DNA of 62,263 bases from Candidatus Enterousia sp. (GCA_045649345.1 JAZRPS010000011.1:1-62263); one strand, 5' to 3'; shown: positions 14,976 to 57,788, numbered from the stretch's first letter. The notes: generated by a model not told the origin, from the letters alone. A program made the numbers and translations.

Positions 14976-15006
14976 AAAAATACACCCCATATGGGGTGTG
15001 TTTTTA
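14976..15006. terminator. Bidirectional terminator hairpin between convergent tsaE and ftsA-rpe
   Basis: ACACCCCATATGGGGTGT palindrome flanked by an A-run and a T-run. Confidence 0.65.
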
Positions 15007-16788
15007 TGTGTTTTGAATATCTTTTTTTAGCAGGCTGTGTACTGCCAATGGAAAGTCTGGGGACTTTGCAAGGTATGAACCGCTGACCAACATGTCGGCA
15101 CCTGCGTCCCAGCATAATTTTGCAGTTCTGTCATTTATGCCACCGTCAACAGATATGACGAATTTTAATCCATATTTTTTGCGTGTTGCCACCAGAACAG
15201 ATATTTTATGCAGGGCGTCAGGTTCAAAACTTTGACCGGCAGCACCCGGTTCGACAGACATTATCATAACCTCATCAATATCGCGCAGGACAGGTTTTAA
15301 TATAGATACAGATGAGCCTGGGTTTATGGCGATTCCGACGCGACGACCAGCGTTCTTTACGATTTTTATTGCAGCACGCAAACCAGATGTATTGGTTGAC
15401 AGTATGACCGTGTCTGCGCCGGCAGCGACAGCGTCAGTTGCCCAAATGTTCGGACTTTCGGTCATTAAATGTACATGTAGATGTGCGTTTGTGTGTGTGC
15501 GGATTGTTTTTAATTCTTCGATACTGCCGGCGATTCTGTCGACATAAAAACCGTCCATAATATCGACGTGTATCATTGATATGCCACCAGATTTAAATAG
15601 GCTATATGTTTCTGGGCGTCGCATGTCAAAGCACAATGTGCTGGGTAATATTGGAATAAATCGGGTGTGATGTTTTGGTTTGCGCTTAAATAATTTATGA
15701 ACCCAGTTGGTGCGCTTTTGCCAACGGTTGTGGCGCGCAATAAATGATTCGCGTTTTGGTTGCAGACCGTGCCATATATAGTCAGACAGGGCGCGAACGG
15801 TTGCGTCGGTGGGTATTGCGTCGGTCAATACGGCAAATGCGTTTTCGATAAAGTCACGTAATCCTTCGATTTCAGCGCCACCGCCTGTTAAAATTATTTT
15901 TGTTGGGTGATATTTTGTAAATGGTTTCAGGCATTGGTCTTTGATTTGTCCAATAATATCAACCAAGATTGGTATAATAATATCGTTTACGTCGGCACGT
16001 GAAAAATCATAGGCGGTATCTGCCGGTGTAAAACGATCCATTTCTTTGGGAATCAGGGATGCGACCGCACGCTTTATTTGGTCGGCAGATTCAACAGATA
16101 TATTTAATTTTTCAGAAATTGCGTTCGTTATATCTGTGCCACCCAGTTTTATTTTTGTGTGAAAAACAGGACCGCGATCTGTCCAAATTGATGCGCTGGT
16201 AAACCCTGCGCCAAAATCGATAAATAGTGTTGGTTGCTTTTCTGTGCGATAAATTGCGTTTTGTATAAATTGTGGGTCATAAAAGGCGGTCGGTTGAATA
16301 AATGCGCCACGCATATGTTCATAAATTTTATCAATCCCACTGCGTGAATAAAATATTGCACCAAAAACAGATGCCAGTTGATGGTCAATGTGTCCAATTG
16401 GTGACAACATATTGCGCGCATGTGGCGTATCATATCGTAATGGAACAATGTGCATTGGGAAATAACCATCGGGTGGTGTTATGCGTGAAATTTGCGCACG
16501 TATGTCAGATGTGGTAATTTTATGTTCGCCAGACCATGTATCGTGTTGGATGGACATTTCAAATGCAGATGGACCAAAATTCCCGGTTATAAAGGCGTTA
16601 TCAAAGTGTGAACCAATTTGTTTTTCTAGTTCGTCAACAACAGATTTTATTGCAAATACGGTATCAAAGCTGTCCATGCTAAAAAAAGCAGAATGGTCAA
16701 TTTGGGCGTTGCGTATGCGATGCGCAATGCCACGTACACCATACGTGCCAATGTCAAGACACAAAAAAGATGAATCGTATAAGTTCAT
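15004..16788 (-). CDS. ftsA: FtsA cell-division protein fused in frame to a ribulose-phosphate 3-epimerase domain
   Basis: Residues 1-350 align by eye with FtsA (LDIGTYGV, IDFGAGFTSASIW, LGGTDIT, LTGGGAEIEGL). Residues 354-372 form a basic amphipathic stretch. Residues 377-594 carry Rpe motifs (IHVDIMDG, HVHLM, MSVEPGAAGQSF, VDGGI). Confidence 0.8.
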   Translation of the reverse strand: MNLYDSSFLCLDIGTYGVRGIAHRIRNAQIDHSAFFSMDSFDTVFAIKSVVDELEKQIGSHFDNAFITGNFGPSAFEMSIQHDTWSGEHKITTSDIRAQISRITPPDGYFPMHIVPLRYDTPHARNMLSPIGHIDHQLASVFGAIFYSRSGIDKIYEHMRGAFIQPTAFYDPQFIQNAIYRTEKQPTLFIDFGAGFTSASIWTDRGPVFHTKIKLGGTDITNAISEKLNISVESADQIKRAVASLIPKEMDRFTPADTAYDFSRADVNDIIIPILVDIIGQIKDQCLKPFTKYHPTKIILTGGGAEIEGLRDFIENAFAVLTDAIPTDATVRALSDYIWHGLQPKRESFIARHNRWQKRTNWVHKLFKRKPKHHTRFIPILPSTLCFDMRRPETYSLFKSGGISMIHVDIMDGFYVDRIAGSIEELKTIRTHTNAHLHVHLMTESPNIWATDAVAAGADTVILSTNTSGLRAAIKIVKNAGRRVGIAINPGSSVSILKPVLRDIDEVMIMSVEPGAAGQSFEPDALHKISVLVATRKKYGLKFVISVDGGINDRTAKLCWDAGADMLVSGSYLAKSPDFPLAVHSLLKKDIQNT

Positions 16789-16797: not shown

Positions 16798-17478
16798 TTA
16801 TTTTACGTAAGTACGCGCACTGTCACGCATGTCTATGACGGTGATGTCTTTGTGTAAAATGTTATGATTTTTATTTAGGGTAATTAAACTGGTGATTGCA
16901 GATATTGGATCAGATTCTGGTAGCATAACGGTAATTCCGCCGGTTGTATGCAGGTTCCAACGGCGATTTTCAATCCATTCAAGATAGTCAATGTCGCCAA
17001 TCATATTGCGTGCAACACGTGTAATTTCGGTAATGTCGTCGGGCAATTTTCCACGAAATACAAGGTTGCCTGTGTCGCGCGCGTCTGTTGGTTTGTTTAC
17101 AATTGTGCCGTCGCCCGATAAAGGGAAATAATTTTCACCGTCTGTCCACAGGGCGACCGCCTGGTATAAAGATACCTCAACAGAAATATTTCCGTTTGGC
17201 ATGCGGCGAACCGCAGATTTGCGTACGCCTGGGACGGCGCCGACGCGTGCGTTCATCGCGTCCAGATCAACAGAATATGAATGTGTGCCGGGTGCAATTG
17301 AGATTGTAGTTGCAAGATCAGATAAATCTGCATCTTTGATATCGGCAGATATGGTTATGTTCCGTACCAGTGATGGTTTGCCGTGACCGGTACCTGTCAT
17401 AATAATGCGTACAGAAAAATATATTGCTAAGACAATAGCAATGATAAAACATAACCAAAACCAGATTGAACGCTTCAT
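16798..17478 (-). CDS. ftsQ: Cell division protein FtsQ
   Basis: N-terminal TM anchor followed by a POTRA/FtsQ-type domain. Lies directly upstream of ftsA (9-bp gap). Confidence 0.8.
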   Translation of the reverse strand: MKRSIWFWLCFIIAIVLAIYFSVRIIMTGTGHGKPSLVRNITISADIKDADLSDLATTISIAPGTHSYSVDLDAMNARVGAVPGVRKSAVRRMPNGNISVEVSLYQAVALWTDGENYFPLSGDGTIVNKPTDARDTGNLVFRGKLPDDITEITRVARNMIGDIDYLEWIENRRWNLHTTGGITVMLPESDPISAITSLITLNKNHNILHKDITVIDMRDSARTYVK

Positions 17479-17524
17479 GGGTTATATTATATCATAAAAA
17501 AGTACGTTTCGCAAAGATTGATTA

Positions 17525-17905
17525 TTACATTGCGCGTAATAAATAGCCGCGACGGAACATGCATTTGCGATATGAACCGACAGATTTTGATGTCGTGTTG
17601 CGCGGAACAGACATTAAACTGCGTTGTCCAACATCGCGATATTCATTTGATTGAAATGTCACCCACAGACCGTCCCAGTCAGGCATCTGACCGCTTTGAT
17701 TCGGGGCAAGAAATTTTGCAATGCGTGAACGTGGCTGGTGCGCAGGTCTTGTAATGCCCAGGCAAGCCTTGTGGTCACGAACGAATTGTTCGGTGGTGAC
17801 GGCTTCGTTCTCCCAATTCAAAATGGTGGCGTCATCAATACTGCCGCGATTGACAGACGCACATGATACCAGGACCAAAAATAATGGTAAAAATTTTATT
17901 CTCAT
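17525..17905 (-). CDS. Hypothetical lipoprotein (126 aa)
   Basis: Signal peptide with lipobox (LFLVLVSCAS). No family recognised. Confidence 0.55.
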   Translation of the reverse strand: MRIKFLPLFLVLVSCASVNRGSIDDATILNWENEAVTTEQFVRDHKACLGITRPAHQPRSRIAKFLAPNQSGQMPDWDGLWVTFQSNEYRDVGQRSLMSVPRNTTSKSVGSYRKCMFRRGYLLRAM

Positions 17906-17982
17906 GTTTTCTATTATAATTTATTTGCCTTTTGGTGGCAATAGTTTTTATAATGTATAAAAAAGAGAGAAAGGACAAAGGA

Positions 17983-18306
17983 ATGGCAATCACCGTTCAA
18001 CAATTTATTAAGTTGGCAAATTATTATAATCAAACTGCGATAATTATGTCCGCGATTTGTGTGCAAAAGGGCGGTATCGCAATGGAAAACTATGTTGGGC
18101 GTTTCTATGGCGCAGATCTACTAGAATTCGTTGTGGAATATGGACGTCGCTTGCAGGCACAAGATAAAAATTTGCAACCAGAAATAGTTGCGTTGATTAA
18201 TCGTTTTAGTGCACAATATGAACGGGTCAAGGATTTGGTGACGCCAACGCAAAAACCGTTCCATGAAATGACACTGGAAGAATTTGAAAAGGTTATGAAT
18301 ATTTAA
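17983..18306 (+). CDS. Hypothetical small cytoplasmic protein (107 aa), first gene of the co-directional array
   Basis: AAAGGA RBS ahead of ATG 17983. 19-bp gap to the next gene. No signal peptide. Confidence 0.45.
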   Translation: MAITVQQFIKLANYYNQTAIIMSAICVQKGGIAMENYVGRFYGADLLEFVVEYGRRLQAQDKNLQPEIVALINRFSAQYERVKDLVTPTQKPFHEMTLEEFEKVMNI

Positions 18307-18325: not shown

Positions 18326-19666
18326 ATGAAATTTGTTCAAAAATATTTTTTGGGGGTTATGGTTTTTGGGGTGGCTTTGTTTTGTGTCGGTTGTGTGCAA
18401 AAAAAGCGACAACAGGTACCATTGTATGATAATATAACTGTTGTTGATGAATTGGTGATTGATTCTAATTCTGTGCCAATCTTTCCAAAAAAGGCAGCGC
18501 TGACAACAGATACGGCGCGCAGATTTTCGATTGAATTGCCAAAACGGTGTGAAGTAGACTGGGATAATCAGAATGTTGTTTCTGTTGTTCCATCTGAAAA
18601 AATAGAAATAATCCGTTTGGATACTGGTGATAAATTGCCTGAATTGCAGGTGTCTGATTATGAGTTTAAAGATTTAACTGTGAAACGTGCATTAGATAAA
18701 TTGCTGGACGGGACAGATGTTTCTGTGGTCGAAGATGAAAGTCTGTACGAGAAGATTTCAGGTACAATTTCATCGGGTGAATTATCGGATGCGGTTGAAC
18801 TGATGACGAAAATGGGACGCGTTTATTATTCGTATGATGAAGGTACGGGCGAATTGCATTTGGCACATCGTGGAAAATGGCTGATAAAAATGCCGCAAAA
18901 TGAAACGATTATTATGGCGCTGTTAGACGCGATGCATGGCGCAGATATGCGAAACCTGTTGGTCGATTGGGCGGATAAAACTGTTGTGTTCGAAGGTAAT
19001 TATCAGACAGAACGTGAAGTGGCAAAGATAATCGCTGATATTTCTGGTAAAAAATATATGTTGGCGTGGGATATTGATGTGTATCGTGTGTATCCGCGTA
19101 CAGATAATCCAATTGTTTGGATGAACCTGTTGCCGGCGTTTGGTGAAAAAAATATAAAAATGTCAATCCCTGGGGTTGTTGGGCGTGCGCTGGTTGTGGG
19201 TCCGGAAATTAATACAAAAACATTGCAGGAATTCTTGGGGCAACAGGCAAATGTTGTCTTGGTATCACAGGGTACGTTTGCAATCCCAAATGGGTGGCAA
19301 TCGCGATTTGATATTGGTCAGTGTGGTCGCGAAGAACGTCTGGAGACAGATTTAATTATTGGTGCAACGGGTAAATATGCGGACTTTGCGGGGCGTAAAA
19401 AGATTGATGCGAAAATTGTTTTGCGTACGTCAAATGGGGAATTGTCGTCCTTTAATATTCCGTCCACGGTTGGCGATAACTATGTAATTGTGGGTATTCC
19501 AACGCATTCGTTTGTGACGACGCCGGAAACATTGGTGTCGCCGTTTGCAGAATTGGTTGTATTTATGTCGCCGCGTATAATTTCAATTGTTGATGGACCG
19601 ACGGGTCATGATGATAGTATGACGGATTTGGTTGGTGATGCATTGCGTGATTTTTTAAGTGAATAA
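18326..19666 (+). CDS. Secretin-like outer-membrane lipoprotein (446 aa), tentative
   Basis: Lipobox (ALFCVGCVQ). N-domain-like segment (FKDLTVKRALDKLLDGTDVSVV). C-terminal region resembles a secretin domain (ANVVLVSQGTFAIPNGWQSRFDIGQ, VIVGIP, ELVVFMSPRII). Confidence 0.45.
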   Translation: MKFVQKYFLGVMVFGVALFCVGCVQKKRQQVPLYDNITVVDELVIDSNSVPIFPKKAALTTDTARRFSIELPKRCEVDWDNQNVVSVVPSEKIEIIRLDTGDKLPELQVSDYEFKDLTVKRALDKLLDGTDVSVVEDESLYEKISGTISSGELSDAVELMTKMGRVYYSYDEGTGELHLAHRGKWLIKMPQNETIIMALLDAMHGADMRNLLVDWADKTVVFEGNYQTEREVAKIIADISGKKYMLAWDIDVYRVYPRTDNPIVWMNLLPAFGEKNIKMSIPGVVGRALVVGPEINTKTLQEFLGQQANVVLVSQGTFAIPNGWQSRFDIGQCGREERLETDLIIGATGKYADFAGRKKIDAKIVLRTSNGELSSFNIPSTVGDNYVIVGIPTHSFVTTPETLVSPFAELVVFMSPRIISIVDGPTGHDDSMTDLVGDALRDFLSE

Positions 19667-19681: not shown

Positions 19682-20935
19682 ATGTTTTCAAAACTGGAAA
19701 GAAAGATTGCGTTTAGATATTTGGGGGCAAAAAAGCGTGGATTTGGTTCGGTGATTTCATGGGTGTCGCTGATTGGTATTATGCTGGGGGTGGCGACACT
19801 GATTGTGGTTATGTCGGTTATGGGTGGTTTTCATGATACGTTGTTGGGACGTATTGTTGGAATGAATGGACATGTGGTTGTTTATCACCAAGATGGTGCG
19901 ATTTCTGATTTTGATTTCTTGATTGATAAAATGAAGCAGAACAAGGTTGTCGCCCAACGTGCAACATCAATTGTGCCAATTGCCGAAGGGCAGGTTATGG
20001 CAACCGCCAATGGTAAAAATACAGGTGCAATGATACGTGGGATTCGAATGAACGATTTGGCGGCAAAAACGCAAACAGGAACACGTATATATGGCAAAAG
20101 TTTGTCTGAAATCAAAGATGGCGAATTGGTTGGTGGGTCGTCTTTGACACGTGCATTGAATGTGACAATGGGGGACAAGATTTCGTTGGTGTCTGCCAAT
20201 GGTGCAACGCCAACGCCATTTGGTTCAATGCCACGAATTATGTCGTATCCGGTGATGAGTTCGTTCTTTATGGGTATGTATGAATATGATTCTGGGTATA
20301 TCTTTATGCCGTTGGAAACCGCGCAAAAGTATTTAAATATTGGTAATGGTGTGACGCATATCGATTTGTTCTTGGACAATCCAGAAGATACAACAGCAGT
20401 GGTGGAAAGTTTGTCGCGACTGTTGCCAGAAGGTTTTGTTGTTCGTGATTGGCGTGATTTGAATCGTGGCTTTGTCGGGGCATTACAGGTTGAATCAAAT
20501 GTGATGTTTTTAATCTTGATGTTAATTGTTATTGTCGCGGCGTTTAACATTGTTTCCAGTCTGGTTATGTTGGTAAAGGATAAAAATAAAGACATCGCGG
20601 TTTTGCGTACGTTTGGTGTGTCGCGTAAATCAATGATGAAGATATTTATTTTGTCGGGGACATCAATCGGTGTGATTGGTGCGTTCTTTGGGACGATATT
20701 GGGCGTTCTGATTGCGATATATGTTGAACCGATTCGTCAGTTTTTCCAATGGTTGACCGGGCGTGATTTGTTTCCGTCAGAATTGTATTATTTGTCTGAA
20801 TTGCCATCAAAGTTGGTCATAGGCGAGGTTGTTGGTATTGCCCTGATTGCGATTTTATTGGCGTTCTTGGCAACATTGTATCCGGCATGGAAGGCGGCAA
20901 AAACCGACCCGGTAGAGGTGTTAAGGAATGAATAA
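19682..20935 (+). CDS. lolC: Lipoprotein-releasing ABC transporter permease (LolC/LolE family)
   Basis: FRYLGAKKRGFGSVISWVSLIGIMLGVATLIVVMSVMGGF N-terminus, large periplasmic loop, C-terminal FtsX-type TM bundle ending DPVEVLRNE. Confidence 0.85.
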   Translation: MFSKLERKIAFRYLGAKKRGFGSVISWVSLIGIMLGVATLIVVMSVMGGFHDTLLGRIVGMNGHVVVYHQDGAISDFDFLIDKMKQNKVVAQRATSIVPIAEGQVMATANGKNTGAMIRGIRMNDLAAKTQTGTRIYGKSLSEIKDGELVGGSSLTRALNVTMGDKISLVSANGATPTPFGSMPRIMSYPVMSSFFMGMYEYDSGYIFMPLETAQKYLNIGNGVTHIDLFLDNPEDTTAVVESLSRLLPEGFVVRDWRDLNRGFVGALQVESNVMFLILMLIVIVAAFNIVSSLVMLVKDKNKDIAVLRTFGVSRKSMMKIFILSGTSIGVIGAFFGTILGVLIAIYVEPIRQFFQWLTGRDLFPSELYYLSELPSKLVIGEVVGIALIAILLAFLATLYPAWKAAKTDPVEVLRNE

Positions 20936-20941: not shown

Positions 20942-21670
20942 GTGAGCAAAATGGCGAAGATTTTGGATTCTTTATCAAAGGTAAATCGTGGCGATGTGGT
21001 TATGTCGGTGCGTGATATAAAGCGGACGTTTGTCGAAGGGGGGCAGCCATTACATATTTTGCGTGGCGGTGGTTTTGATTTGCATCGTGGTGAAATTATT
21101 GCCTTGGTTGGTGCGTCTGGGTCTGGGAAATCAACACTGTTGCAGTGTGTTGGGCTGTTGGACAGACCCAGTGGGGGCAGTATTATGATTGGTGGTGCGC
21201 CGATACAGAAAATGGACGAAGATATGCGTACGCAAATTCGTCGTAAAAAAATAGGATTTGTTTATCAGCGTCATAATTTATTGTCTGATTTTACCGCAAT
21301 TGAAAATGTTATGTTGCCGATGTTGGCGAATGGCGTGGCCGAAGATGCAGCACGCGCGCGCGCAATCAAACTGTTGCGTGCGGCAAATGTTGCGCATCGT
21401 GCGTCGCACCTGCCGGGGGAAATGAGTGGCGGTGAACAACAGCGTACCGCTGTTGCGCGTGCGTTGGCTAATAATCCGGATATCTTGTTGGCGGACGAAC
21501 CAACGGGCAGTTTGGACCCAATGCATGCAGGGGCGGTGTTTGATTTGCTGATGGATTTGGTGCGTAAAAACAAAATGGCAATGCTGTTTGTGACGCATGA
21601 TATGAATTTGGCATCGCGTGCAGACCGCAGAATAACAATTAATAATGGTATTGTTGAATCAATGCACTGA
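20942..21670 (+). CDS. lolD: Lipoprotein-releasing ABC transporter ATP-binding protein
   Basis: Walker A GASGSGKST, signature MSGGEQQR, Walker B LLADEPTGSLD. GTG at 20942 or ATG at 20951. Confidence 0.85.
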   Translation: MSKMAKILDSLSKVNRGDVVMSVRDIKRTFVEGGQPLHILRGGGFDLHRGEIIALVGASGSGKSTLLQCVGLLDRPSGGSIMIGGAPIQKMDEDMRTQIRRKKIGFVYQRHNLLSDFTAIENVMLPMLANGVAEDAARARAIKLLRAANVAHRASHLPGEMSGGEQQRTAVARALANNPDILLADEPTGSLDPMHAGAVFDLLMDLVRKNKMAMLFVTHDMNLASRADRRITINNGIVESMH

Positions 21671-21722: not shown

Positions 21723-22265
21723 ATGAAAATGAAAAAGTCAGAGGGAAAATTTGTAAAAGTTTTATGTTATGTAGCAACGTTTGTTGTCGGGGCAGGTATT
21801 GGTTTCTTTGCGTCGGAAATAACGGCAAAAAAAGGTATGCAATTATCTGATGCACAGTGTGCGGTCGTTCAAGAAAAAATTATCGAAAATGCAAAGTGTT
21901 ATAGTGCGTTTTGTACAGAACACTTAAAGGAACTGTATGCGATTTACCGTAATGATTGTGCAGGTCGTATTATTCCAGAAGAAATATATGAAATGCGGTC
22001 TTGTGCACAGATGGAAAAAATTATAAAAAAGCGTTTCGATGCGTCCAAGGAAACAAGTTCGTCTTATCGTGATCATATCAGCCTGGCCAGCTATTTTGTA
22101 AAATTGGCGGTGCATGCATGTCCGGAACATGTTGAAATGTACAATAATCTGGCGTGGCGTGAAATTGAAATTGTGGGGGCGTTGACATCTGTGGAATATA
22201 TGGATATGGCAGATAAACAAGAATTAAACCGTGTGTTGAAAACACTGGGTGAAAATAAGAAATAA
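21723..22265 (+). CDS. Membrane-anchored hypothetical protein with a Cys-containing helical module (180 aa)
   Basis: N-terminal TM anchor. One copy of the ~60-aa module C-x2-ME-x2-I...ACPEH-x3-Y-x3-A-x-REIEIVGAL, shared with the next gene. Confidence 0.55.
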   Translation: MKMKKSEGKFVKVLCYVATFVVGAGIGFFASEITAKKGMQLSDAQCAVVQEKIIENAKCYSAFCTEHLKELYAIYRNDCAGRIIPEEIYEMRSCAQMEKIIKKRFDASKETSSSYRDHISLASYFVKLAVHACPEHVEMYNNLAWREIEIVGALTSVEYMDMADKQELNRVLKTLGENKK

Positions 22266-22289
22266 AAATATAAGAAAAGGAGAGAGACA

Positions 22290-23060
22290 ATGAAAAAAGC
22301 AGAAAAGCAATATAGGGTTGTGCATAGTCGTTCACAAAAAATCTGGGGGGCGTTGGCACTGGCGGGATTATTTGCATGTGGATTGTTGGTTGGTTGGGGT
22401 ATCAATGAAAAACGCAGTGCGCCACAACAACTGGAAATGGAACAGATTGCAAAGCCTGTCCCCCAGGTTGATGGTGATGTGAAACCGGTCACAGAACAAA
22501 ATTCTGAACCAAAAGAAACGTGCCAGATTATTGAAGACCTGTTATTGGAACGTCTGGCGCCAGTTGATAGTCAAGACGTTGAAGCGCATGAATTTAATAT
22601 TAATGTTTATGAAAAGTTGGTAATGAATGGCTGTTCAGAAAATCAAATGAAATATCACAAGGCGGCACAACGAGAACGTGAAATTGTAAACGCGTTGCAA
22701 CAGACAAACAGTTCACAACAAACATGTGAACAGATTGAAACATTGTTGACGCAACAATTGCCGTATGCAAATGAAGATTCGGAAGCGCGTATAGAACGTG
22801 CAAAAATCTATGCAAATTTATCTGAACGTGGTTGTCCAGAAAATAGTGCGAAATATGTTGAATTGGCAAAACAAGAACTGGAAATCGCACGTGCGTTAGA
22901 AGATGATGAATTTGATAATGATGAAACAATCGAAGTTGTTGAAACATACAAGCGTTTGAATATGCAGGCGGCAGCCGAAGAAATTTTTGAAACGGCGAAA
23001 AAACTGACTAACCCGGCGATTGATTTTATCTTGGAAGTTGAAAAAATAATTAATGAATAA
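22290..23060 (+). CDS. Membrane-anchored hypothetical protein with two copies of the same module (256 aa)
   Basis: TM anchor (IWGALALAGLFACGLLVGWGI). Modules TCQIIEDLL...GCSENQMKYHKAAQREREIVNAL and TCEQIETLL...GCPENSAKYVELAKQELEIARAL. Confidence 0.55.
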   Translation: MKKAEKQYRVVHSRSQKIWGALALAGLFACGLLVGWGINEKRSAPQQLEMEQIAKPVPQVDGDVKPVTEQNSEPKETCQIIEDLLLERLAPVDSQDVEAHEFNINVYEKLVMNGCSENQMKYHKAAQREREIVNALQQTNSSQQTCEQIETLLTQQLPYANEDSEARIERAKIYANLSERGCPENSAKYVELAKQELEIARALEDDEFDNDETIEVVETYKRLNMQAAAEEIFETAKKLTNPAIDFILEVEKIINE

Positions 23061-23077
23061 AAATTAAGGAACAAAGA

Positions 23078-23677
23078 ATGAAATTCTGGGTGATTTTATT
23101 CGGATTGGTTTTAACAACAGGTGCATTTGCCACAGATGACACAACCGAAGATGTTGTCGAAGAAGAGGTTGTTGAAGAAGAGGCAGAAGCGTCTGTTGTA
23201 GAGCGCATATCGTGTACAGATATTCAGGCGCAGATAACAGAATTGAGTGCCATAGAAGAACCGGATGAAGAAACGCAAGAAGAATTGGCAAATCTGAAAG
23301 CAACCCAACGTTCGAAATGTATGCGCAGTGCAGGAAAGCGACGTGCCGCCGTGGGACGCAAAGCGCTGATTGCAGCATCAGAAGCGTCGACGACCACAGA
23401 AGAAGTTTTGGTTGATGAGAGTGTAGAGAAAGAACAGCCAAAACAAGAGGCTGAGAAAGAAGAAGTCGTTAAGGAGGTTGTTGTTGAAGAACAAACCGTG
23501 TCCGAATTAACCCCGGAACAGGTTCAGGCAAATTTGGACGCAGGACTGTGTGCAGATGGTGCAAAACCGAATCGTTTTGGTTGTTGCGGCGATGAAATTT
23601 TTAAAGATATGGGGAATGCTGTTTTTGCATGTTGTCCAAAATCTGGGGGTGATTGTTTGCCACCAATAGGAAAATAG
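23078..23677 (+). CDS. Secreted acidic protein with a C-terminal cysteine-knot-like domain (199 aa)
   Basis: Signal peptide MKFWVILFGLVLTTGAFA, Glu/Val-rich low-complexity body, C-terminal CADGAKPNRFGCCGDEIFKDMGNAVFACCPKSGGDCLPP. Confidence 0.6.
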   Translation: MKFWVILFGLVLTTGAFATDDTTEDVVEEEVVEEEAEASVVERISCTDIQAQITELSAIEEPDEETQEELANLKATQRSKCMRSAGKRRAAVGRKALIAASEASTTTEEVLVDESVEKEQPKQEAEKEEVVKEVVVEEQTVSELTPEQVQANLDAGLCADGAKPNRFGCCGDEIFKDMGNAVFACCPKSGGDCLPPIGK

Positions 23678-24844: not shown

Positions 24845-25423
24845 GTGGTGTATCTTTTATTTTTGCTTGTTGTTTTTGTTTTGTCATTCTTGTTGCTGTA
24901 TATGTGGGGGCGGATTATAGAATATATTTATTGCGTTGTTTGGAAAAAACAAGCGCCGTTTGTTGCGTGTTGTTTTGTGCATAAACGCGCAATAGTTGCG
25001 CAAATAAAACAATTTTATCCAGATGCAAAAAGTGTGGTAGAGGTTGGTTCCGGTGATGGGGCGTTGGCACGATATGTTGCCCGTCGTACCAAGATGTCTG
25101 TGTATGCGTTGGAAAATATGCCGTTTTGTGTTTTCTTGTCCCGTATTGGTGATTTGTTTTGTTTCGCAAAGTCAAAAACGATTTGGTGTGATGCGTTTGA
25201 ATATCTGAAAAAAACAGATAAAAAATTTGATGTCGCAATCGCGTTTTTGGGACCAAAAATAACGCCGAAATTGAAAAAATATAATAAGCAAATAAAAGTT
25301 TTGATTTCGATGAATTTTGAAATCCCAGAATTAAAACCTGTGCGAACTGTTGATTTAAAACGGGGCGAAGTTACGTACGGCAACAAAAAATATCTAAATA
25401 AATTGTTTGTTTATGAATTATAA
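24845..25423 (+). CDS. Putative class I SAM-dependent methyltransferase with an N-terminal TM segment
   Basis: Motif I-like VVEVGSGDGALARYVA. GTG start. 192 aa. Confidence 0.45.
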   Translation: MVYLLFLLVVFVLSFLLLYMWGRIIEYIYCVVWKKQAPFVACCFVHKRAIVAQIKQFYPDAKSVVEVGSGDGALARYVARRTKMSVYALENMPFCVFLSRIGDLFCFAKSKTIWCDAFEYLKKTDKKFDVAIAFLGPKITPKLKKYNKQIKVLISMNFEIPELKPVRTVDLKRGEVTYGNKKYLNKLFVYEL

Positions 25424-25449
25424 AAAATGCCCCGTTTGGGGCGTTTTTT
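25424..25449. terminator. Bidirectional terminator hairpin
   Basis: GCCCC GTTT GGGGC with flanking A- and T-runs, between convergent genes. Confidence 0.65.
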
Positions 25450-25453
25450 ATAT

Positions 25454-26011
25454 TTATCTGTTGTTTGATTTGTCTTTTAGTTTTTTTATGTGTGTCATGT
25501 CTTGTTCTGATAGACCAAGAGATTTTAACTGATTGATTGCTTGATTGTATATAGGTGCTTTTGGATTGCTGTGTGTGGTAAGATTTTTATAACCAGCTTT
25601 ATCTAAAAAGAAAAACATTTTTTCTTTGTTTTTATCATATTTAGATAGTGCAGCAACCCATACACAATATGCCTTTGAATTATAATCGATTCTGCTTAGA
25701 TATTCTGATTCTTTGCCGTCAGGGGTTCTAATCCAAAAACCATTACCATTTGGGTATTTTCTTATGGAGATTTTTCCGATTTTTATGCTGCGTGCACGGT
25801 ACGCATTTGAAGAAAAAACGTTGCCCATATCACGTTTCCCATATTCTGTTGGAATTTGAGGGGTTGTGGTCAATTCTGTGGCATAGGGGACCCCATATGC
25901 GTCTTTCATATCTGTTCGATAAGTTGTTTCTATTAATACAGGTGTGTTTTCATCAAGTAATGCGTTTACAACTTCATCCAAGATATTTTTGTCTTCTTTT
26001 GGTGTTGTCAT
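25454..26011 (-). CDS. Hypothetical protein, paralogue of 6766-7308
   Basis: 185 aa. Shared N-terminal, central and C-terminal segments with the 180-aa ORF at 6766-7308. Confidence 0.6.
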   Translation of the reverse strand: MTTPKEDKNILDEVVNALLDENTPVLIETTYRTDMKDAYGVPYATELTTTPQIPTEYGKRDMGNVFSSNAYRARSIKIGKISIRKYPNGNGFWIRTPDGKESEYLSRIDYNSKAYCVWVAALSKYDKNKEKMFFFLDKAGYKNLTTHSNPKAPIYNQAINQLKSLGLSEQDMTHIKKLKDKSNNR

Positions 26012-33893: not shown

Positions 33894-33991
33894 AATGACA
33901 GAAGTTGATGAATAACTTTTTATCGAAATCCGGGCGCAGGTGTTGCGTTCGGATTTGTTTCTTTTGTAAAACATAAAAAAGGGATGTGAGT

Positions 33992-34888
33992 ATGAATTTA
34001 GGACGAACATGGGCATTAACAAAAATTTTATTTCAATCGCATATATTTAACTGGCCGTGGCGGTCGCGCGAACACAGACGTGACGTCAGAACAGATGTAT
34101 TGTCACGTGTTGCGCCAGAATATTTTAAGCGGTATTTGCCGGCGGTAAAATCTGTTCAGGAAACAGAGGTTATAAAAGATGATAAAAATGAAAAGATTTT
34201 TACCATTTGGCAACAGGGTGAAGAAAATGCCCCAGAACTGGTGAAGTCTTGTTTCCGCAGTATTCGTAAGCATTGTAAGCAAGAACTGGTTGTGTTGGAC
34301 GACAAGACAATTTTTGATTATATAACGTTGCCTGATGTAATTGTTGAAAAGTACAAGGCAGGAAAAATTCGTCGTGCGCACTTTGCGGATATTTGTCGTG
34401 TTGAATTGTTGTATCAATATGGCGGTATTTGGTTGGATTCAACAGACTTTGTTGTGTCGCCAATCCCAAAATGGATAATTGATGAAGATTTCTTTATGTA
34501 TTTGGTTGGTGATAAGGTAGGGCAGAAATATATGTTCTGTCAGAATTGCTTTATTCGTGGACGTCGTGGGTCTTATTTGTTGGGGGCGTGGCGTGCAATG
34601 ATTTTGGAATACTGGAAAAATGAAAACAAAAGTTTTGATTACTTTATGCATCAGATGTTGTTCCAGACGTTGGTTCAGAATGATGAACGGGCAAAAAAGT
34701 ATTTTGCCAAAATGTCACATGTTGACCAATATCCAACACATACATTATGGCATGAATATAAATATCAACCATTTAATCAGAAAAAGTTTGATGAATTAAC
34801 AGCGGATGCTTTCTTTCAGAAAACAGCCTATGCGGATGCGCCAAAGCCTGGCACGTTTTCAGAGGCAATCTGTAATATGAACAAATAA
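33992..34888 (+). CDS. Capsular-polysaccharide-synthesis-type glycosyltransferase (Caps_synth / GT32-like)
   Basis: IFTIWQQGEENAPELVKSCFRSIRKHC...KAGKIRRAHFADICRVELLYQYGGIWLDST matches the Caps_synth family signature from memory. Confidence 0.7.
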   Translation: MNLGRTWALTKILFQSHIFNWPWRSREHRRDVRTDVLSRVAPEYFKRYLPAVKSVQETEVIKDDKNEKIFTIWQQGEENAPELVKSCFRSIRKHCKQELVVLDDKTIFDYITLPDVIVEKYKAGKIRRAHFADICRVELLYQYGGIWLDSTDFVVSPIPKWIIDEDFFMYLVGDKVGQKYMFCQNCFIRGRRGSYLLGAWRAMILEYWKNENKSFDYFMHQMLFQTLVQNDERAKKYFAKMSHVDQYPTHTLWHEYKYQPFNQKKFDELTADAFFQKTAYADAPKPGTFSEAICNMNK

Positions 34889-34909
34889 AAAAATAAAAAG
34901 GGGTACGTG

Positions 34910-35938
34910 ATGCCTGCGATTTCGATAATTATTCCGGTTTATAACGTTGAAAAATATTTACGTAGATGTCTGGATAGTGTGTTAAATCAGACTTTTGCCA
35001 ATTGGGAGGCGATTTGTGTCAACGACGGCAGTCCAGATGATAGTTATAAAATCTTGGACGAATATGCTGCGCGTGATAAGCGCTTTAAAATCGTAAACAA
35101 AGAAAATGGTGGTTTGTCTGATGCGCGTAATGCAGGTATGGCGGTCGCAACAGGTGATTATATTCTGTATTTAGATAGTGATGATTTTATTCATCCGCAA
35201 ACAATGGAAATTGCATATTTCTTGGCGCGGCGTGATGGTTCTGATATTGTGTCGTTTACATATGACAGAATTTATCGTCCACAATTGATGGTGCGTCATG
35301 TTTTGGGGCGCGATACAGATAATGTTATCCCAGGGCGTATTCATAAAAAATATAATCCAGGTCGTATCAAGACATTGGTGACAGATGATATTTATGAATA
35401 TGCAACAGAACGCACGCATAATGCCCCGGGGCGCAAAAAAAAGTGGCTGGTAAAACATTGCCAGGTTTGGAAAAATATGTATAAACGTGAACTGATTTCA
35501 GATATTCCTTTTATAAAGGGAATTTTGTTTGAAGATTTCCCATGGTGGAGTCAGGTTATGTTGCGTAATCCCCGTACGACGATTGCACCATTACCATTGT
35601 ATTTCTATATACCAAATTTTGGTGGAATTGTGTTAAGTGCAAAGCAGTTGCGTATCATGCAAAGTTTATGCGTTGGGATAAAGACGGCTTATACAGTTTA
35701 TATGGAACGTGCGACAAAATATCAGATGCAAAAATGGTCTGAAAATTTCCAATGGTATTTTATCAAGTGGGCGTTTCGTAAAATAAAGTACATCGATTCA
35801 GATGGTGATATGGATGCGGCGCGTGAATGTTTTCGTGAATTGGAACGTATTGGTGCGTTGGACAGACCGCCATACAGATGGGCAAAAAAACTGCGTATGG
35901 AAATATGTAAGTTTATAAAGTCGTGTAAGTATGAATAA
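34910..35938 (+). CDS. Family 2 glycosyltransferase
   Basis: ISIIIPVYNVEKYLRRCLDSVLNQT...ICVNDGSPDDS...GGLSDARNAG...LDSDD. Confidence 0.9.
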   Translation: MPAISIIIPVYNVEKYLRRCLDSVLNQTFANWEAICVNDGSPDDSYKILDEYAARDKRFKIVNKENGGLSDARNAGMAVATGDYILYLDSDDFIHPQTMEIAYFLARRDGSDIVSFTYDRIYRPQLMVRHVLGRDTDNVIPGRIHKKYNPGRIKTLVTDDIYEYATERTHNAPGRKKKWLVKHCQVWKNMYKRELISDIPFIKGILFEDFPWWSQVMLRNPRTTIAPLPLYFYIPNFGGIVLSAKQLRIMQSLCVGIKTAYTVYMERATKYQMQKWSENFQWYFIKWAFRKIKYIDSDGDMDAARECFRELERIGALDRPPYRWAKKLRMEICKFIKSCKYE

Positions 35939-35968
35939 AAAAAATCCCGCAATCGCGGGATTTTTTTA
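35937..35968. terminator. Bidirectional terminator hairpin between convergent glycosyltransferase genes
   Basis: ATCCCGC AAT GCGGGAT with flanking A- and T-runs. Confidence 0.65.
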
Positions 35969-36979
35969 TTTTTCGAATTGGGATTTTTCTGGGAATCTTT
36001 CCGCCATAAATTTTGCGTTATCGCGCAGGATGGTTTCGTCTGTGTCGCGCGAATCGTTTATGCAAAATGTTGGGGCGCGCAATAGGGCGCTGCGTGCAGT
36101 TGATGTGTCTGTGCAACAAACAGGGGATTTTTTTATCCATGGCATAAATATTGCGTTATAAATAAAATCTGTGATTTTATGTCGTGTATGTTTGCGTGCG
36201 CGACTGTGTATAAATACAGCCCGGTCATTAATCAGGTCATATAGATTGAATAGCCAACGTTGAACCTCGTTATTAGTTCTGAATTTGTTTCTGATTTGTT
36301 GGTCGATTTGACCAGTTATCATTGGGTGGTTGCGACATGCAATCCATGTTGATTTTATGTATGGGTCAATACCATGCGATGGGCGATACTTATAAACCTT
36401 TTTACCAAATATGCGTTCGATAAATTGTGCAGATAGTATCAATGTCTGGGTGTATTCGTCAACGCGTTCTAACCAGGTGCCGATGTTTTTACTGCGGTTG
36501 GAATGATTGCTGTATAATACACGTGCGCGACCGTATTTGTCATAAAAGAAATCAGGTGTCAGCGGACGGTTAAAGAACATGTCGTCATTCATTAATAAAA
36601 AGTGTTCTGATAGCCCCGGTATGTTTGGTATACACATTTCAATTGCGGTTGCGTTAAATGTTGGTATTGCGTCGGCTGGCATAATTTGTTCGTGTGGGAC
36701 AATTGTGATTTTCGGATGTTTTGTATTCAGCCAACGTGGCACCTGGTTAAAACCAGTGATGATATAGATATGATTTACCCATGGGGCAAATTTATCAACA
36801 CTGCGCAATGAATACAGAAATTCGCCATTGTCGCGCCAGCGTGCCTCTATCGCGGCGTCTTTATAGACGGGACGTTTGCCTTTGATAATTTTTAGCCATT
36901 TATCTTTTTCGGCGCGCCATTTTTTGTCTGTATCATCAACCCATAAATAAACAATATCTATTTTCATGTCTGGTATCAT
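35966..36979 (-). CDS. Stealth-family (CR1-CR4) sugar-1-phosphate transferase
   Basis: CR1-like DIVYLWVDDTDKKW, CR2-like NGEFLYSLRSVDKFAPWVNHIYIITGFNQVPRWL, later LLMNDDMFF. Start at Met 36979, abutting the upstream gene's stop. Confidence 0.75.
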   Translation of the reverse strand: MIPDMKIDIVYLWVDDTDKKWRAEKDKWLKIIKGKRPVYKDAAIEARWRDNGEFLYSLRSVDKFAPWVNHIYIITGFNQVPRWLNTKHPKITIVPHEQIMPADAIPTFNATAIEMCIPNIPGLSEHFLLMNDDMFFNRPLTPDFFYDKYGRARVLYSNHSNRSKNIGTWLERVDEYTQTLILSAQFIERIFGKKVYKYRPSHGIDPYIKSTWIACRNHPMITGQIDQQIRNKFRTNNEVQRWLFNLYDLINDRAVFIHSRARKHTRHKITDFIYNAIFMPWIKKSPVCCTDTSTARSALLRAPTFCINDSRDTDETILRDNAKFMAERFPEKSQFEK

Positions 36980-36981
36980 GT

Positions 36982-37836
36982 TTAAACCCCCGACTTTTTG
37001 AATCTGGTTGGAATTTTTACAATACGTTTTACGCCCAGCATGCCGGGTTTGTCCCATGCGTAAATTGGGCGAAATATGCGCTGCATAACGCGTGCAATGG
37101 TCAGCCATCTTTCGCCGTATGCACGACGGTTTGTCACGTCGTTAATTGTACCGTTGCCACGACGTTTTAGGTGGTTTACCCAATCAGGACCGCGTGATGC
37201 GGCTTTTGTCACCAGCATGTTCATGTCAACCGCGCCAAAATGTAATAGATACAGGTTTTTATCAATATGAAAATTGTGGCCGCGGATACTGTGAAACCCA
37301 GAACCCCAGCGTACAGGACGGTTTATAACAACGGGCTTGGTGTATCTGGTTGATAGTAATGCGTATGAACGTTGGGTTAAAAATGGTTCGGACTGATTTA
37401 GTGTTTTTTCGTATTTTAAATGTTGACCAACGTCCAGCCCCAGACCAGATACAGTTGTATTTATTTTTGTTTCAGATAAATATTGGGACAATGTTTTATT
37501 TAGGGCGGGGTCGATAATTAAAAATTCATCACAATCACAACCGATAACAATGTCGTATTCGTTTAGCAGTTTATTCGCCAAATCGGACATTAATTCAATG
37601 CGATATTTGTCGCCGGCACTGCGTGACATGTCGGTGTGTGGCAATTTTGTGACGTGTGCAGAACCAACGTTCTTTGGCGTCTTTTGGTCCGTGCCGTCCA
37701 GATAAATATACAGGTTTTCTGTACCAAACTGGTTGCCGTAATAGCGTATCCAACGGGACAGAAAGAATTCATCGTTTCGTGCCATGGTTATGGCGCAAAT
37801 GCGTTTGTGAAGATTCTTTTTATTTTTGGTTGTCAT
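36982..37836 (-). CDS. Glycosyltransferase (GT2-like, Glyco_tranf_2_4 type)
   Basis: ICAITMARNDEFFLSRWIRYYGNQFGTENLYIYLDGTDQ and GCDCDEF (DxD-like). Confidence 0.55.
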   Translation of the reverse strand: MTTKNKKNLHKRICAITMARNDEFFLSRWIRYYGNQFGTENLYIYLDGTDQKTPKNVGSAHVTKLPHTDMSRSAGDKYRIELMSDLANKLLNEYDIVIGCDCDEFLIIDPALNKTLSQYLSETKINTTVSGLGLDVGQHLKYEKTLNQSEPFLTQRSYALLSTRYTKPVVINRPVRWGSGFHSIRGHNFHIDKNLYLLHFGAVDMNMLVTKAASRGPDWVNHLKRRGNGTINDVTNRRAYGERWLTIARVMQRIFRPIYAWDKPGMLGVKRIVKIPTRFKKSGV

Positions 37837-38696
37837 ATTCCCTCTATAAATAATTTATGAAATGCGTGGTTAATGTTTCTGAATATAATTTTTATCGGGT
37901 TGCGTGTTATCAGCCATTTAATATGATTTTCACCATATGATGCGCGTGCAGACGATAATATTGCGTCGCGTGTATCAGAATCAATATTTCGTAATATATA
38001 TGAAATTTGGCGACCCAGTGCGCCATGATTGCGTGTAAATGCAACGCGTTTTATAAATGGCATGCCGATTTTATAAAACTTCTTTACATTGTTGTATACG
38101 CTGCGTCCTGGGGCGTTGAACAGACAGCACCACGATAAATTATTTTCGGTGATCTGTTTTGAAAAGCCCTGCTCATATTGACGCGTGATTTCACCCTTGT
38201 GCGGTAATTTTGTAATTTTGCGCATAAATTGGTCATACCATGTGGATAAAAACACTGTTGGCGTCATGCCGATAAACCATGATTGAATATGTGGGTGATG
38301 GCGGTGTGGATTCGCAACCAGACCAAATGCATCGCATGGCAGTGATTCCATGCGTTTAAAATAAGAATCCAGTGGATACAGTGGACCATAAACAGAATCG
38401 TTTACCATATAGACGTAGTCGTATTCAGACAGGTCTAAATTTTGAACCGCCCATATATATGCACGTTTATATGAACCAAAATCATATTCGCCGTGGCGCG
38501 TGCCAGTGGCGTATAGAGTGATGTTTTTTAATTTTGATAGTTCTGTTTTTGTGCAATCAGAATCCATAACTAAAATAATATCGCCAAATTGGGATAGTTT
38601 TTTTGTATAATTTAATAATGCATTGTCGATTTTGCCCGCTTTGTCATAGCCGGCGAATAAGAACAGGCGTTTTATCCTAGAATTCTTTGCTTTCAT
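37833..38696 (-). CDS. Rhamnan-synthesis-F (RgpF)-like glycosyltransferase
   Basis: LFLFAGYDKAGKIDNALLNYTKKL...ILVMDSD pattern resembles RgpF-family proteins. 4-bp overlap with the downstream gene. Confidence 0.45.
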   Translation of the reverse strand: MKAKNSRIKRLFLFAGYDKAGKIDNALLNYTKKLSQFGDIILVMDSDCTKTELSKLKNITLYATGTRHGEYDFGSYKRAYIWAVQNLDLSEYDYVYMVNDSVYGPLYPLDSYFKRMESLPCDAFGLVANPHRHHPHIQSWFIGMTPTVFLSTWYDQFMRKITKLPHKGEITRQYEQGFSKQITENNLSWCCLFNAPGRSVYNNVKKFYKIGMPFIKRVAFTRNHGALGRQISYILRNIDSDTRDAILSSARASYGENHIKWLITRNPIKIIFRNINHAFHKLFIEGI

Positions 38697-38748
38697 ATTA
38701 TATAATTTACATAAAATATAATCATTTTGCAACCAAGGACTTTATTTT

Positions 38749-39945
38749 ATGTCAGTTAAGATTTATGCGTCAGATTCTTATAAGAAATATTTCGATAAAA
38801 AAACCGCGGGTCAGTCTGTTGTGTCGGGGCTGGATATAACGGTTGTGGATAATGGGGCGATTGTTATTGATCCGCGTGACCATGGATTTGGTGTGTTTGA
38901 TGAACAGGGGCAATTTGTTAAGGCGTCGCTGCAAATGCGTAAAAATAATGGGCAATTTATTCCAAAGGTTCCAGAAAATATGCCGTATGTTGATGATGAT
39001 GTTTTATATTTTGGGAATGTGTATCCGGCATTTGGACATTTCTTGTTGGAACATATGAATCGCGGTTGGGGATGGTTGCGTGATGAATATCGGCATTGCA
39101 AGGTTGTGCTGGTTAATAATAAGTTAATAAAAGATATTCCGGGGTATATGTTCGATTTGATTGAGATATTGGGTGTAAAACGTGAAAATATAATTGTGTT
39201 AAATGAAAGTACAAAGTTTCGTCGTGTTGTTATTCCACAACAGGCGTTTAATATTCCAATTATGTCGTCAATTGAATTTGGTGAAACGTTTTCCGCAATG
39301 GCAGATAATGCGCATGGTACGTCCTATGACAAGGTATATTTGTCCCGTGACAAATTAAATATGCGACGCACATTGGGCGAGGCGCAAATTCAGAAAATCT
39401 TTGAAAAAAATGGTTTTAAGATAATTTACCCAGAAACATTGCCGCTGGAACAGCAGATTGCGGCGGTGAAAAACTGTCGCGTGTTGGCGGGGTGCGCAGG
39501 AACCGCAATGCATTTGGCGCTGTTTATGCCGCGTGGTGGAACTGTGATTCAATTAAAGCGAAATTCAAAAGATGATTGCAGTGCGCCAACACAATATATG
39601 ATTAATAACACATTGGATTTAAAATCTGTCTTTATTTCGCCGTCGGTCGAAGAAACGCCAACAGGACATTTTACAAATGCGCCACAAATTATCGCGGTAA
39701 ATAAGTATATGAAGCAGTTCTTGGATGATTTTGGATTTAAATATACAGATGAAGATATTGCAGAAAACAGGGAAGTGTTGGCTGAATATCGTGCGCAAAT
39801 GGTGGAATATAAAAAGACACAGGGCAGTGTGCGTGCAAATAAAATAAAGCATGCGTTGATTAAATATTCTGCATGTCTGATACCGGGGCGTGAAAGACGT
39901 GGGCGTTATCGTGCGTATTTAAAGTCGCGTTTTGTTGCGAAATAA
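38749..39945 (+). CDS. GT61/DUF563-family glycosyltransferase
   Basis: FGNVYPAFGHFLLEHMNRGW and CRVLAGCAGTAMHLALFMPRGGTVIQL segments typical of DUF563. Confidence 0.6.
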   Translation: MSVKIYASDSYKKYFDKKTAGQSVVSGLDITVVDNGAIVIDPRDHGFGVFDEQGQFVKASLQMRKNNGQFIPKVPENMPYVDDDVLYFGNVYPAFGHFLLEHMNRGWGWLRDEYRHCKVVLVNNKLIKDIPGYMFDLIEILGVKRENIIVLNESTKFRRVVIPQQAFNIPIMSSIEFGETFSAMADNAHGTSYDKVYLSRDKLNMRRTLGEAQIQKIFEKNGFKIIYPETLPLEQQIAAVKNCRVLAGCAGTAMHLALFMPRGGTVIQLKRNSKDDCSAPTQYMINNTLDLKSVFISPSVEETPTGHFTNAPQIIAVNKYMKQFLDDFGFKYTDEDIAENREVLAEYRAQMVEYKKTQGSVRANKIKHALIKYSACLIPGRERRGRYRAYLKSRFVAK

Positions 39946-44233: not shown

Positions 44234-44378
44234 GGATACACCACGATTTCTGTCATATGTTGGGTTGCAGGAAATGAAATTATCATCAGTATCAATATGA
44301 TGATAAGCAGTGTCCAAATTAAAACTTTGCGAAAATTGTTATTTTTCTTGCGCTTTAATGGCATAAGGAATTTCCTTT

Positions 44379-55272: not shown

Positions 55273-55284
55273 ATCCCACTGCAA

Positions 55285-55294
55285 GGGGGGGGGG
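55285..55294 (+). repeat. Homopolymeric G10 tract upstream of the first cysteine-rich protein gene
   Basis: Ten consecutive G in an otherwise AT-rich intergenic region, 66 nt before ATG 55361. Confidence 0.9.
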
Positions 55295-57784: not shown

Positions 57785-57788
57785 AAGA

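Follow-up and report, generated by a model that had tools for sequence, protein, structure and literature searches.

A divergent FtsA fused in frame to a ribulose-phosphate 3-epimerase barrel in Candidatus Enterousia and its relatives

Metabolic enzymes that moonlight as division regulators are known from several bacteria: UgtP in B. subtilis, OpgH in E. coli, GdhZ and KidO in Caulobacter. They act non-covalently and on FtsZ, and their role has been shown experimentally. Here we describe a gene in which a central-metabolism enzyme is likewise physically tied to the Z-ring machinery, in an alphaproteobacterium as are GdhZ and KidO, but by covalent fusion, to FtsA, and with a regulatory role that is hypothetical; the parallel is a functional analogy, and we do not class the fusion with these regulators. 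The gene encodes FtsA continued in frame by ribulose-phosphate 3-epimerase (Rpe), and it lies on a stretch of 62,263 nucleotides from Candidatus Enterousia sp. (GCA_045649345.1, JAZRPS010000011.1:1-62263), which we call the window.

Canonical FtsA (E. coli; T. maritima, 1E4G and 4A2A; S. aureus, 3WQT; V. maritimus, 7Q6F) has an actin-like fold with an FtsA-type 1C subdomain and the ATP motifs DxGT, DxGxGxT and GGGA, its gene stands directly downstream of ftsQ, and a basic amphipathic helix comes after the core. The fusion shares all of this. In canonical FtsA the helix is C-terminal, constitutes the membrane-targeting sequence, and is needed for membrane binding (PMC8897712). In the fusion, by contrast, it is internal and followed by a 215-residue enzyme domain; moreover the core is shorter (~341 residues) and only 15-18% identical to solved FtsA structures, no ftsZ is found downstream, and some fused sub-groups have lost ATP-site Asp residues. 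The enzyme domain resembles stand-alone Rpe (S. pyogenes 2FLI, human 3OVP, potato 1RPX) in its barrel, its His-Asp-His-Asp site, its cushion of three Met and its phosphate-binding loops. Unlike stand-alone Rpe, the fused family carries an N-terminal FtsA, has F/Y-V/T-D/E/N-x in place of 'FVPN' and 'PGAAGQ' or similar in place of 'PGFGGQ', forms a clade of its own that is only ~31-40% identical to the stand-alone proteins, scores below the equivalog cut-off of the family, and includes two sub-lineages (proteins P0134/P0286, and P0139) that are catalytically degenerate.

The fusion gene occupies 15004..16788 on the minus strand. It is a single uninterrupted open reading frame (ORF) of 594 codons, with an ATG start and a TAA stop at 15004-15006, and Pfam and NCBIfam profiles of both families match its product. 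Directly upstream, 9 bp away, ends ftsQ (16798..17478, minus strand, 226 amino acids, PF03799 E=1.9e-9). An earlier, sequence-only reading of this DNA had proposed exactly this arrangement, an in-frame fusion of FtsA and Rpe encoded by an uninterrupted ORF 9 bp behind ftsQ. The ORF list, the sequence and the ftsQ profile match confirm it, the arithmetic of all its sub-coordinates checks out, and the profile, fold and comparative evidence given below shows that the fusion is real. It had also known of no description of such a fusion, which agrees with our full-text literature searches: no paper mentioning an FtsA-epimerase fusion was found, nor any discussion of division genes in the Rs-D84/Enterousia literature. 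What is already public are the sequences, annotated only as Rpe; the fusion amounts to an FtsA with a C-terminal enzyme, or pseudo-enzyme, module.

The FtsA core covers residues 1-341 (15766..16788, minus strand). In the AlphaFold2 (AF2) model it adopts an actin-like fold, with predicted local distance difference test (pLDDT) values mostly of 88-96. The FtsA family PF14450 matches residues 189-318 (E=3.2e-11, 44.1 bits for a Pfam cut-off of 31.8), and the motif table gives the three ATP motifs as D12-I-G-T (phosphate 1), D191-F-G-A-G-F-T (phosphate 2) and G302-G-G-A (adenosine). By sequence, nevertheless, the best PDB match is PilM (2YCH, E=5.3e-7), with FtsA just behind it; TIGR01174, the equivalog model for FtsA, falls far short of its cut-off, and some sub-groups have other residues in place of the phosphate-1 and phosphate-2 Asp. 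These points would fit another actin-fold protein, either PilM-like or a sugar kinase of the ASKHA type whose partner in pentose metabolism would be Rpe. Comparison of folds argues otherwise: in a Foldseek search of the PDB, ranks 1 to 19 were all FtsA, from S. aureus, T. maritima, V. maritimus, E. coli and X. poinarii (template modelling (TM) score on the target 0.67-0.77, ~350-387 columns), while PilM reached only 0.53-0.56 and no sugar kinase was among the 50 best matches. In addition, the FtsA-specific 1C domain SHS2_FTSA is above the Pfam cut-off in the relatives P0135 (44.4 bits), P0142 (33.2) and P0140 (26.1), the Pfam search of the window protein itself giving no SHS2 match; the gene always comes straight after ftsQ, and in relatives the two overlap in translation; and no pilNOPQ genes are adjacent. 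A sugar kinase, attractive since a xylulokinase joined to Rpe would make pathway sense, was rejected on account of the FtsA fold matches, SHS2 and the ftsQ linkage. We conclude that the N-terminal half, by its sequence and predicted fold, is a highly divergent member of the FtsA family and very probably an FtsA orthologue, as its FtsA-like appearance had suggested, and that a non-FtsA identity is essentially excluded.

The second half is a (beta/alpha)8 barrel at residues 380-594 (15007..15651, minus strand; the modelled barrel spans 380-590). PF00834 (Ribul_P_3_epim) matches residues 393-573 with E=3.5e-42, and the rpe subfamily model NF004076 is passed with 179.3 bits for a cut-off of 165. 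The AlsE model NF007266 is not reached (134 for a cut-off of 271). S. pyogenes Rpe (2FLI) aligns over its residues 6-214 (E=2.8e-39), which means that strand beta-1 is included, and Foldseek superimposes the half on Rpe structures with TM-target up to 0.93 (2FLI) and a root mean square deviation of 1.3-1.4 Å. These results bear out the proposal that residues 377-594 form a full Rpe barrel.

Alignment with the characterised enzyme 2FLI also places the expected metal and catalytic residues. The tetrad H407, D409, H440 and D548 (codons 15568-15570, 15562-15564, 15469-15471 and 15145-15147, minus strand) falls on His34, Asp36, His67 and Asp176. The Met cushion (M411, M442, M510) is invariant or nearly so, and the phosphate loops P514-G515-A-A-G518-Q519, G549-G550 and G570-S571 are present, the Phe-Gly of PGFGGQ being Ala-Ala in the window protein. 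The motifs IHVDIMDG, HVHLM, MSVEPGAAGQSF and VDGGI all occur. The replacement after MDG, FYVDR standing where FVPN is usual, had been pointed out as an oddity of this protein; it turns out to be family-wide, as no fused member has FVPN and only P0288 keeps Val-Pro. Across the 80 loci described below, 71 of the 218 Rpe-half positions are invariant. From these residues, it is likely that the Rpe half is catalytically active in the window organism.

Could Rpe also be made separately, from an internal start? No conserved Met or start codon precedes beta-1, and M388, the first Met in frame, lacks conservation and as a start would cut off this strand, so the idea was rejected. Among named stand-alone Rpe proteins the closest come from Lactobacillales (37-40% identity), too distant to name a donor of the Rpe half there.

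A fusion seen on one contig may be an assembly artefact or a recent stop-codon loss, options that the sequence-only reading had left standing, or a sequencing error. We scanned GTDB contigs, with one genome per species, and obtained 303 matching stretches, so that ~300 species-level genomes encode the same fused ORF. The best 80 of the 303 (62-95% identity) were examined as loci. They come from 'Candidatus Enterousia' or gut Alphaproteobacteria metagenome-assembled genomes (MAGs) of ruminants, humans, chickens and other hosts, and all 80 have one uninterrupted, ATG-started ORF of 588-598 amino acids, with no stop codon or frameshift between the halves. Among them is a closed chromosome of 958,618 bp (OZ007020.1, fusion at 234,706-256,475). 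Full-length relatives of 584-598 amino acids at 73-100% identity form more than 120 clusters (at 90% identity), drawn from NCBI, ENA, JGI and Logan assemblies and all with both Pfam domains; the only name that any of them bears is 'ribulose-phosphate 3-epimerase [Alphaproteobacteria bacterium]'.

The single sign of an artefact is one cluster with split ORFs on Logan contigs, in pairs of 392+212, 333+281 and 343+220 amino acids. The breaks fall inside the FtsA half at three different places, never at the junction, two of them have frameshifted tails, and the downstream pieces all read across the junction into Rpe; they are thus assembly or sequencing errors rather than domain splits. Two short Rpe-only entries, P0136 and P0342, were considered as unfused Rpe and rejected, because their first residues lie within the fused sequence (for P0136, at the Met inside the conserved IPIMPST motif); most likely they are contig-edge fragments of fused proteins. 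Given the 80 intact loci, hundreds of independent uninterrupted assemblies, dN/dS (the ratio of nonsynonymous to synonymous substitution rates) far below 1 in both halves, and relatives at ~31% identity with the same ftsQ synteny, an artefact or a recent, contig-specific stop-codon loss is essentially excluded, and is the least probable of all the explanations that we weighed.

To what depth the fusion extends was seen in an exhaustive HMMER search of 1.84 billion cluster representatives. The full-length fused proteins that it recovered include some of just 31-36% identity, stand-alone Rpe comes no closer than ~40%, and no non-fragmentary unfused FtsA relative was found among the 150 best matches. 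Word-indexed homologue searches returned 3 proteins with P0134 as the query and 5 with a profile of nine divergent members. The divergent members, where named, belong to Alphaproteobacteria or 'Rickettsiales bacterium' MAGs. Orthologues at ~31-34% identity keep the synteny: lolD-lolC and two unknown ORFs run in one direction, and in the other come an ORF of 126 amino acids, (glycosyltransferase), ftsQ and the fusion. Downstream of the fusion the genes vary in these orthologues, and ftsZ is never next. The 9-bp gap between ftsQ and the fusion is replaced by a 4-nt overlap in distant relatives, and ftsQ has this position in loci L081-L087.

When the Rpe halves of 22 diverse fused proteins were compared with 45 stand-alone Rpe representatives, they formed one clade (neighbour-joining bootstrap 99/100), and the pairwise identities of the FtsA and Rpe halves correlate (r=0.64). 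Monophyly and correlation together indicate a single ancient fusion. We conclude, with hardly any doubt left, that the fusion is real, ancient and of single origin. Enterousia belongs to the GTDB order Rs-D84, whose genomes are of ~1 Mb or less, and most Rs-D84 genomes keep the non-oxidative pentose-phosphate steps except transaldolase (PMC12306168); the epimerase counted there could be the fusion itself.

To see whether both halves are maintained, substitution rates are informative. When the window is compared with two close relatives, L001 and L002, dN/dS is ~0.05 in the FtsA half, 0.05 in the linker and 0.02 in the Rpe half. Both halves are under strong purifying selection (dN/dS 0.02-0.06), and these low values mean that both are functional genes. 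The catalytic tetrad is kept in 19 of the 22 diverse members and replaced in P0134, P0286 and P0139. P0134 and P0286 have Y, T, H, C instead (H407 to Y, D409 to T, D548 to C), and their PG..GQ and GS phosphate loops are altered. P0139, a second degenerate case, has N, D, N, Y, together with a deletion of the PG..GQ loop.

P0134 is present in 14 assemblies, the contigs measuring up to 198 kb, and its gene neighbourhood is exactly that seen in the window: lolCD, the 126-amino-acid ORF, ftsQ, fusion, tsaE, uvrB, asmA and aspS. The lineage of P0134 and P0286 (loci L081/L082, ENA ERZ27279278 k119_45647 and JGI Ga0119809_1000035, and L087) is a sister lineage of ~25% guanine plus cytosine (GC), as compared to 42% in the window; it is much more AT-biased and fast-evolving, and its local gene order is identical. 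Between P0134 and P0286 the Rpe half is more conserved than the FtsA half, both in identity (80% and 73%, respectively) and in dN/dS (0.20 and 0.37), and their Rpe halves still match PF00834 with 85-89 bits. A barrel under constraint (dN/dS 0.20) with three of its four catalytic residues replaced suggests a non-catalytic, structural role of the Rpe domain in the 25%-GC lineage. This catalytically degenerate yet constrained barrel is new, and goes beyond what had been claimed for the locus.

These lineages bear directly on the main rival of a functional coupling, namely a neutral passenger fusion. The ftsA stop codon would have been lost in a compacting genome, the two halves would keep their separate jobs uncoupled, and re-splitting would be improbable. 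Such a frozen accident fits the reduced, compact genomes of the order (PMC12306168), and the disordered, poorly conserved linker. It also fits an overall model in which no fixed interface between the domains is suggested (predicted TM (pTM) score 0.59), and the existence of RuvX-Rpe, RNase III-Rpe and 6-phosphogluconolactonase-Rpe fusions elsewhere. It accounts less well for the complete lack of splits at the junction across a divergence down to ~31% identity, and for P0134/P0286 and P0139, which lost catalytic residues yet kept the barrel: in P0134/P0286 this barrel is more conserved than the FtsA half, and one would expect a shrinking 25%-GC genome to discard a passenger domain that was of no use. 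We regard neutrality as a serious possibility, though an unlikely one.

Sub-groups differ in which 'half-function' appears intact. The phosphate-1 and phosphate-2 Asp are both replaced, with the Rpe site intact, in the sub-group of P0140, P0146 and P0148; counting P0288 and P0290 as well, phosphate 1 has Tyr and phosphate 2 has Asn or His, again with an intact Rpe site. P0141-P0145 keep their ATP motifs, and have a linker without amphipathic helix.

Between the two halves of the window protein, secondary structure assignment by DSSP on the AF2 model gives one long helix, residues 343-367 (15688..15762, minus strand), whose distal part (residues ~354-367) is cationic and amphipathic. This part has W356, W362, V363, L366 and F367 among many Arg and Lys, and resembles the FtsA membrane-targeting sequence, but in an internal position. 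Its hydrophobic moment is 0.69, for a protein mean of 0.28; what we take to be the E. coli FtsA membrane-targeting peptide gives 0.62. In 81 Enterousia-type orthologues W356, W362, I/V363, I/L366 and F367 are kept at helical spacing, the net charge at the junction lies between +7 and +13, and the hydrophobic moment has a median of 0.65. The likeness of residues 354-372 to a membrane-targeting helix, noticed in the sequence-only reading, is supported on physicochemical grounds: a predicted helix, amphipathic and strongly basic. On these properties, the internal helix more probably than not binds the membrane.

After the helix comes a basic linker, KRKPKHHTRFIP (residues 368-379, 15652..15687, minus strand), predicted to be disordered (pLDDT <50 at 368-375). 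Being Lys/Arg-rich and exposed, it could be the place of a post-translational cleavage. A cut there would recreate a canonical FtsA C-terminus, with its terminal helix, and liberate a free Rpe, the fusion serving only as a co-expression device. This is very unlikely, however: no protease site or conserved cleavage motif was found, the linker sequence varies freely, and retention of a catalytically dead barrel would be left unexplained.

The explanation that we put forward, and hold to be slightly better than an even bet as a whole, is a bifunctional gene. ftsA, the gene after ftsQ, was fused to rpe once, in an ancestor of the gut alphaproteobacterial order Rs-D84. The FtsA half would anchor FtsZ at the membrane, with the now-internal amphipathic helix acting as membrane-targeting sequence. 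The Rpe barrel would thereby be held at the membrane surface, where it would still interconvert ribulose-5-phosphate and xylulose-5-phosphate as the epimerase of the cell. Rpe proteins are established to form dimers and hexamers, and Rpe entries of the PDB with 6 or 12 chains are consistent with hexamers. Since Rpe self-associates in this way, the fused barrel may plausibly have taken on the task of clustering or scaffolding FtsA, and such a co-option would explain the constrained barrel of the 25%-GC lineage with three of four catalytic residues replaced.

Parts of this explanation are less assured than others. That the Rpe domain contributes structurally to the work of FtsA at all is plausible, at somewhat less than even chances. 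A more specific form is a tentative proposal, less probable again: the barrel would be a permanent structural part of the divisome, and through contacts of the dimer or hexamer type it would gather FtsA and its membrane helices into a multivalent anchor for FtsZ. Under it the scaffold role would now be essential, so that the barrel survives as a pseudo-enzyme where epimerase activity was lost or unneeded, and intact lineages would place pentose-phosphate chemistry, for 3-deoxy-D-manno-oct-2-ulosonic acid (KDO) and lipopolysaccharide (LPS) precursors, at the membrane beside the division machinery.

Several observations weigh against the bifunctional, scaffolding gene. On the side of identity, both equivalog models stay below threshold: TIGR01174 aligns residues 43-320 of the window protein with 57.5 bits for a cut-off of 175.85, and the Rpe model TIGR01163 gives 152.9 for 212.6. 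Conservation is lowest at the junction (residues 351-376), none of whose 26 positions is invariant in the 80 loci, and P0141, P0142, P0143 and P0145 have a short Pro/Gly/Arg-rich linker with no amphipathic helix, which is therefore not universal to the family. The AF2 model, built on a 20-sequence alignment, has a mean pLDDT of 87.1 and a pTM of 0.59, a combination that suggests two independently folded domains with no confidently predicted interface between them. As for the degenerate lineage, the barrel of P0134 was modelled as complete (pLDDT 85.5), but from an alignment dominated by catalytically intact relatives; in P0134/P0286 erosion extends to the ATP motifs of FtsA, and dN/dS is raised throughout, so that the pattern could in part reflect a general relaxation of selection. 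Finally, rpe is found behind unrelated genes in other lineages, coding for RuvX, RNase III and 6-phosphogluconolactonase, and a fusion as such need not mean functional coupling.

These other fusions (RuvX-Rpe, P0173; RNase III-double-stranded RNA-binding domain-Rpe, P0179; 6-phosphogluconolactonase-Rpe, P0247), each seen as a single cluster representative, also have Rpe as the C-terminal module, which means that Rpe tolerates N-terminal fusions. They differ from the present one by their partners, none of which is a divisome protein, and by their unrelated lineages, and only the 6-phosphogluconolactonase fusion makes pathway sense.

If the barrel of the bifunctional gene does influence FtsA, it might do so as an attached sensor: occupancy by ribulose-5-phosphate or xylulose-5-phosphate would alter FtsA assembly or membrane binding, and by analogy with the non-covalent UgtP, OpgH, GdhZ and KidO such a metabolic checkpoint would couple division to the supply of carbon or envelope precursors. 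In its favour, the ligand-binding residues are strictly conserved in most lineages, and the barrel is tethered no more than ~12 residues from the putative membrane helix. Ribulose-5-phosphate feeds KDO and LPS synthesis, in an organism that imports most of its building blocks, and LPS genes are present (lptF/G and pagL in the window, lpxC and lpxK in relatives). But the domain persists in lineages whose binding site is destroyed, so that ligand sensing cannot be its universal role, and the model predicts no confident interdomain interface. We consider the checkpoint improbable; like cleavage, it is a less likely explanation than the scaffold or the neutral fusion.

The genes around the fusion complete the picture of a putative operon. 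Its first gene would be the 126-amino-acid ORF (17525..17905, minus strand), with a lipoprotein-like signal (..LVLVSC..) and no family in the Pfam search. An ORF of 126-127 amino acids with such a signal (MRIKFLPLFLVLVSC..) stands in the same orientation 5′ of ftsQ in all sub-groups examined, including the orthologues at ~31-34% identity (L081 8942-9322, L083 7960-8343, L085 7982-8362). Its product is possibly a lipoprotein of division or of the envelope that has so far escaped recognition, and the gene would share a transcript with ftsQ and the fusion. A consensus scan detected a candidate promoter-like site upstream of this ORF (TTGCCA-17-TATAAT, 11 of 12 matches, 17913..17941, minus strand) and a second one upstream of ftsQ (17486-17514, minus strand). 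At the other end the terminator scan gave an intrinsic-terminator-like hairpin, ACACCCCATATGGGGTGT, followed by a T-run (14982..14999, minus strand; 7-bp stem with 5 GC pairs), starting 4 nt past the fusion stop codon and ending the operon. The terminator directly behind the gene that had been read in the sequence is thus found again, at 14999-14982; by its sequence it would act in both directions, for the convergent tsaE too.

That no ftsZ is next to the fusion had been remarked before, and extends to the entire window: no ftsZ, second rpe, tkt or rpi is present in these 62 kb, which represent ~7% of a genome as small as this one. A search for the tubulin signature of FtsZ, GGGTG[STA]G, gave 0 matches in 1.68 Mb (the window and 88 loci), a result that is uninformative for the rest of the genome because all loci cover one syntenic region. 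Within the window, a XerC/D-type tyrosine recombinase gene (43376-44317, minus strand) and ftsK (52908-55166, plus strand) indicate that other late-division and chromosome-resolution genes are retained.

The window has some further features. Upstream of lolC (19682-20935; lolD 20942-21670), two ORFs of 124 and 446 amino acids (17932-18306 and 18326-19666, plus strand) have no Pfam family. Counterparts of ~101-107 and 433-444 amino acids lie beside lolCD across the order (L081, L083, L085), and the two are possibly lineage-specific Lol or outer-membrane partners. A surface-polysaccharide cluster at 33986-39945 (Caps_synth, GT2, Stealth with CR1/CR2/CR4, another GT2, RgpF-like, GT61) is notable for a genome of ~1 Mb. 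No significant Pfam family was found for a run of ORFs of 180-256 amino acids (21723-23677 and 24845-26011), nor for three large ones of 868, 267 and 960 amino acids (55178-57784, 57759-58562 and 59355-62237, plus strand). Past ~4 kb the GC skew is positive in nearly every 2-kb bin and its cumulative value rises steadily, and most genes are on the plus strand; the window is thus probably within one replichore.

A practical consequence of the fusion concerns annotation: as ~300 species-level genomes label the gene only 'ribulose-phosphate 3-epimerase', their FtsA is invisible by name. The fusion may still prove functionally neutral. The C-terminal amphipathic helix of FtsA is regarded as both the end of the protein and its membrane anchor, and here a whole order puts a folded, oligomerising enzyme after it, which makes the fusion a natural test of how the membrane attachment and the oligomeric state of FtsA can be organised. 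The degenerate barrel of the sister lineage is a candidate for a transition from metabolic enzyme to cytoskeletal accessory, caught at both stages.

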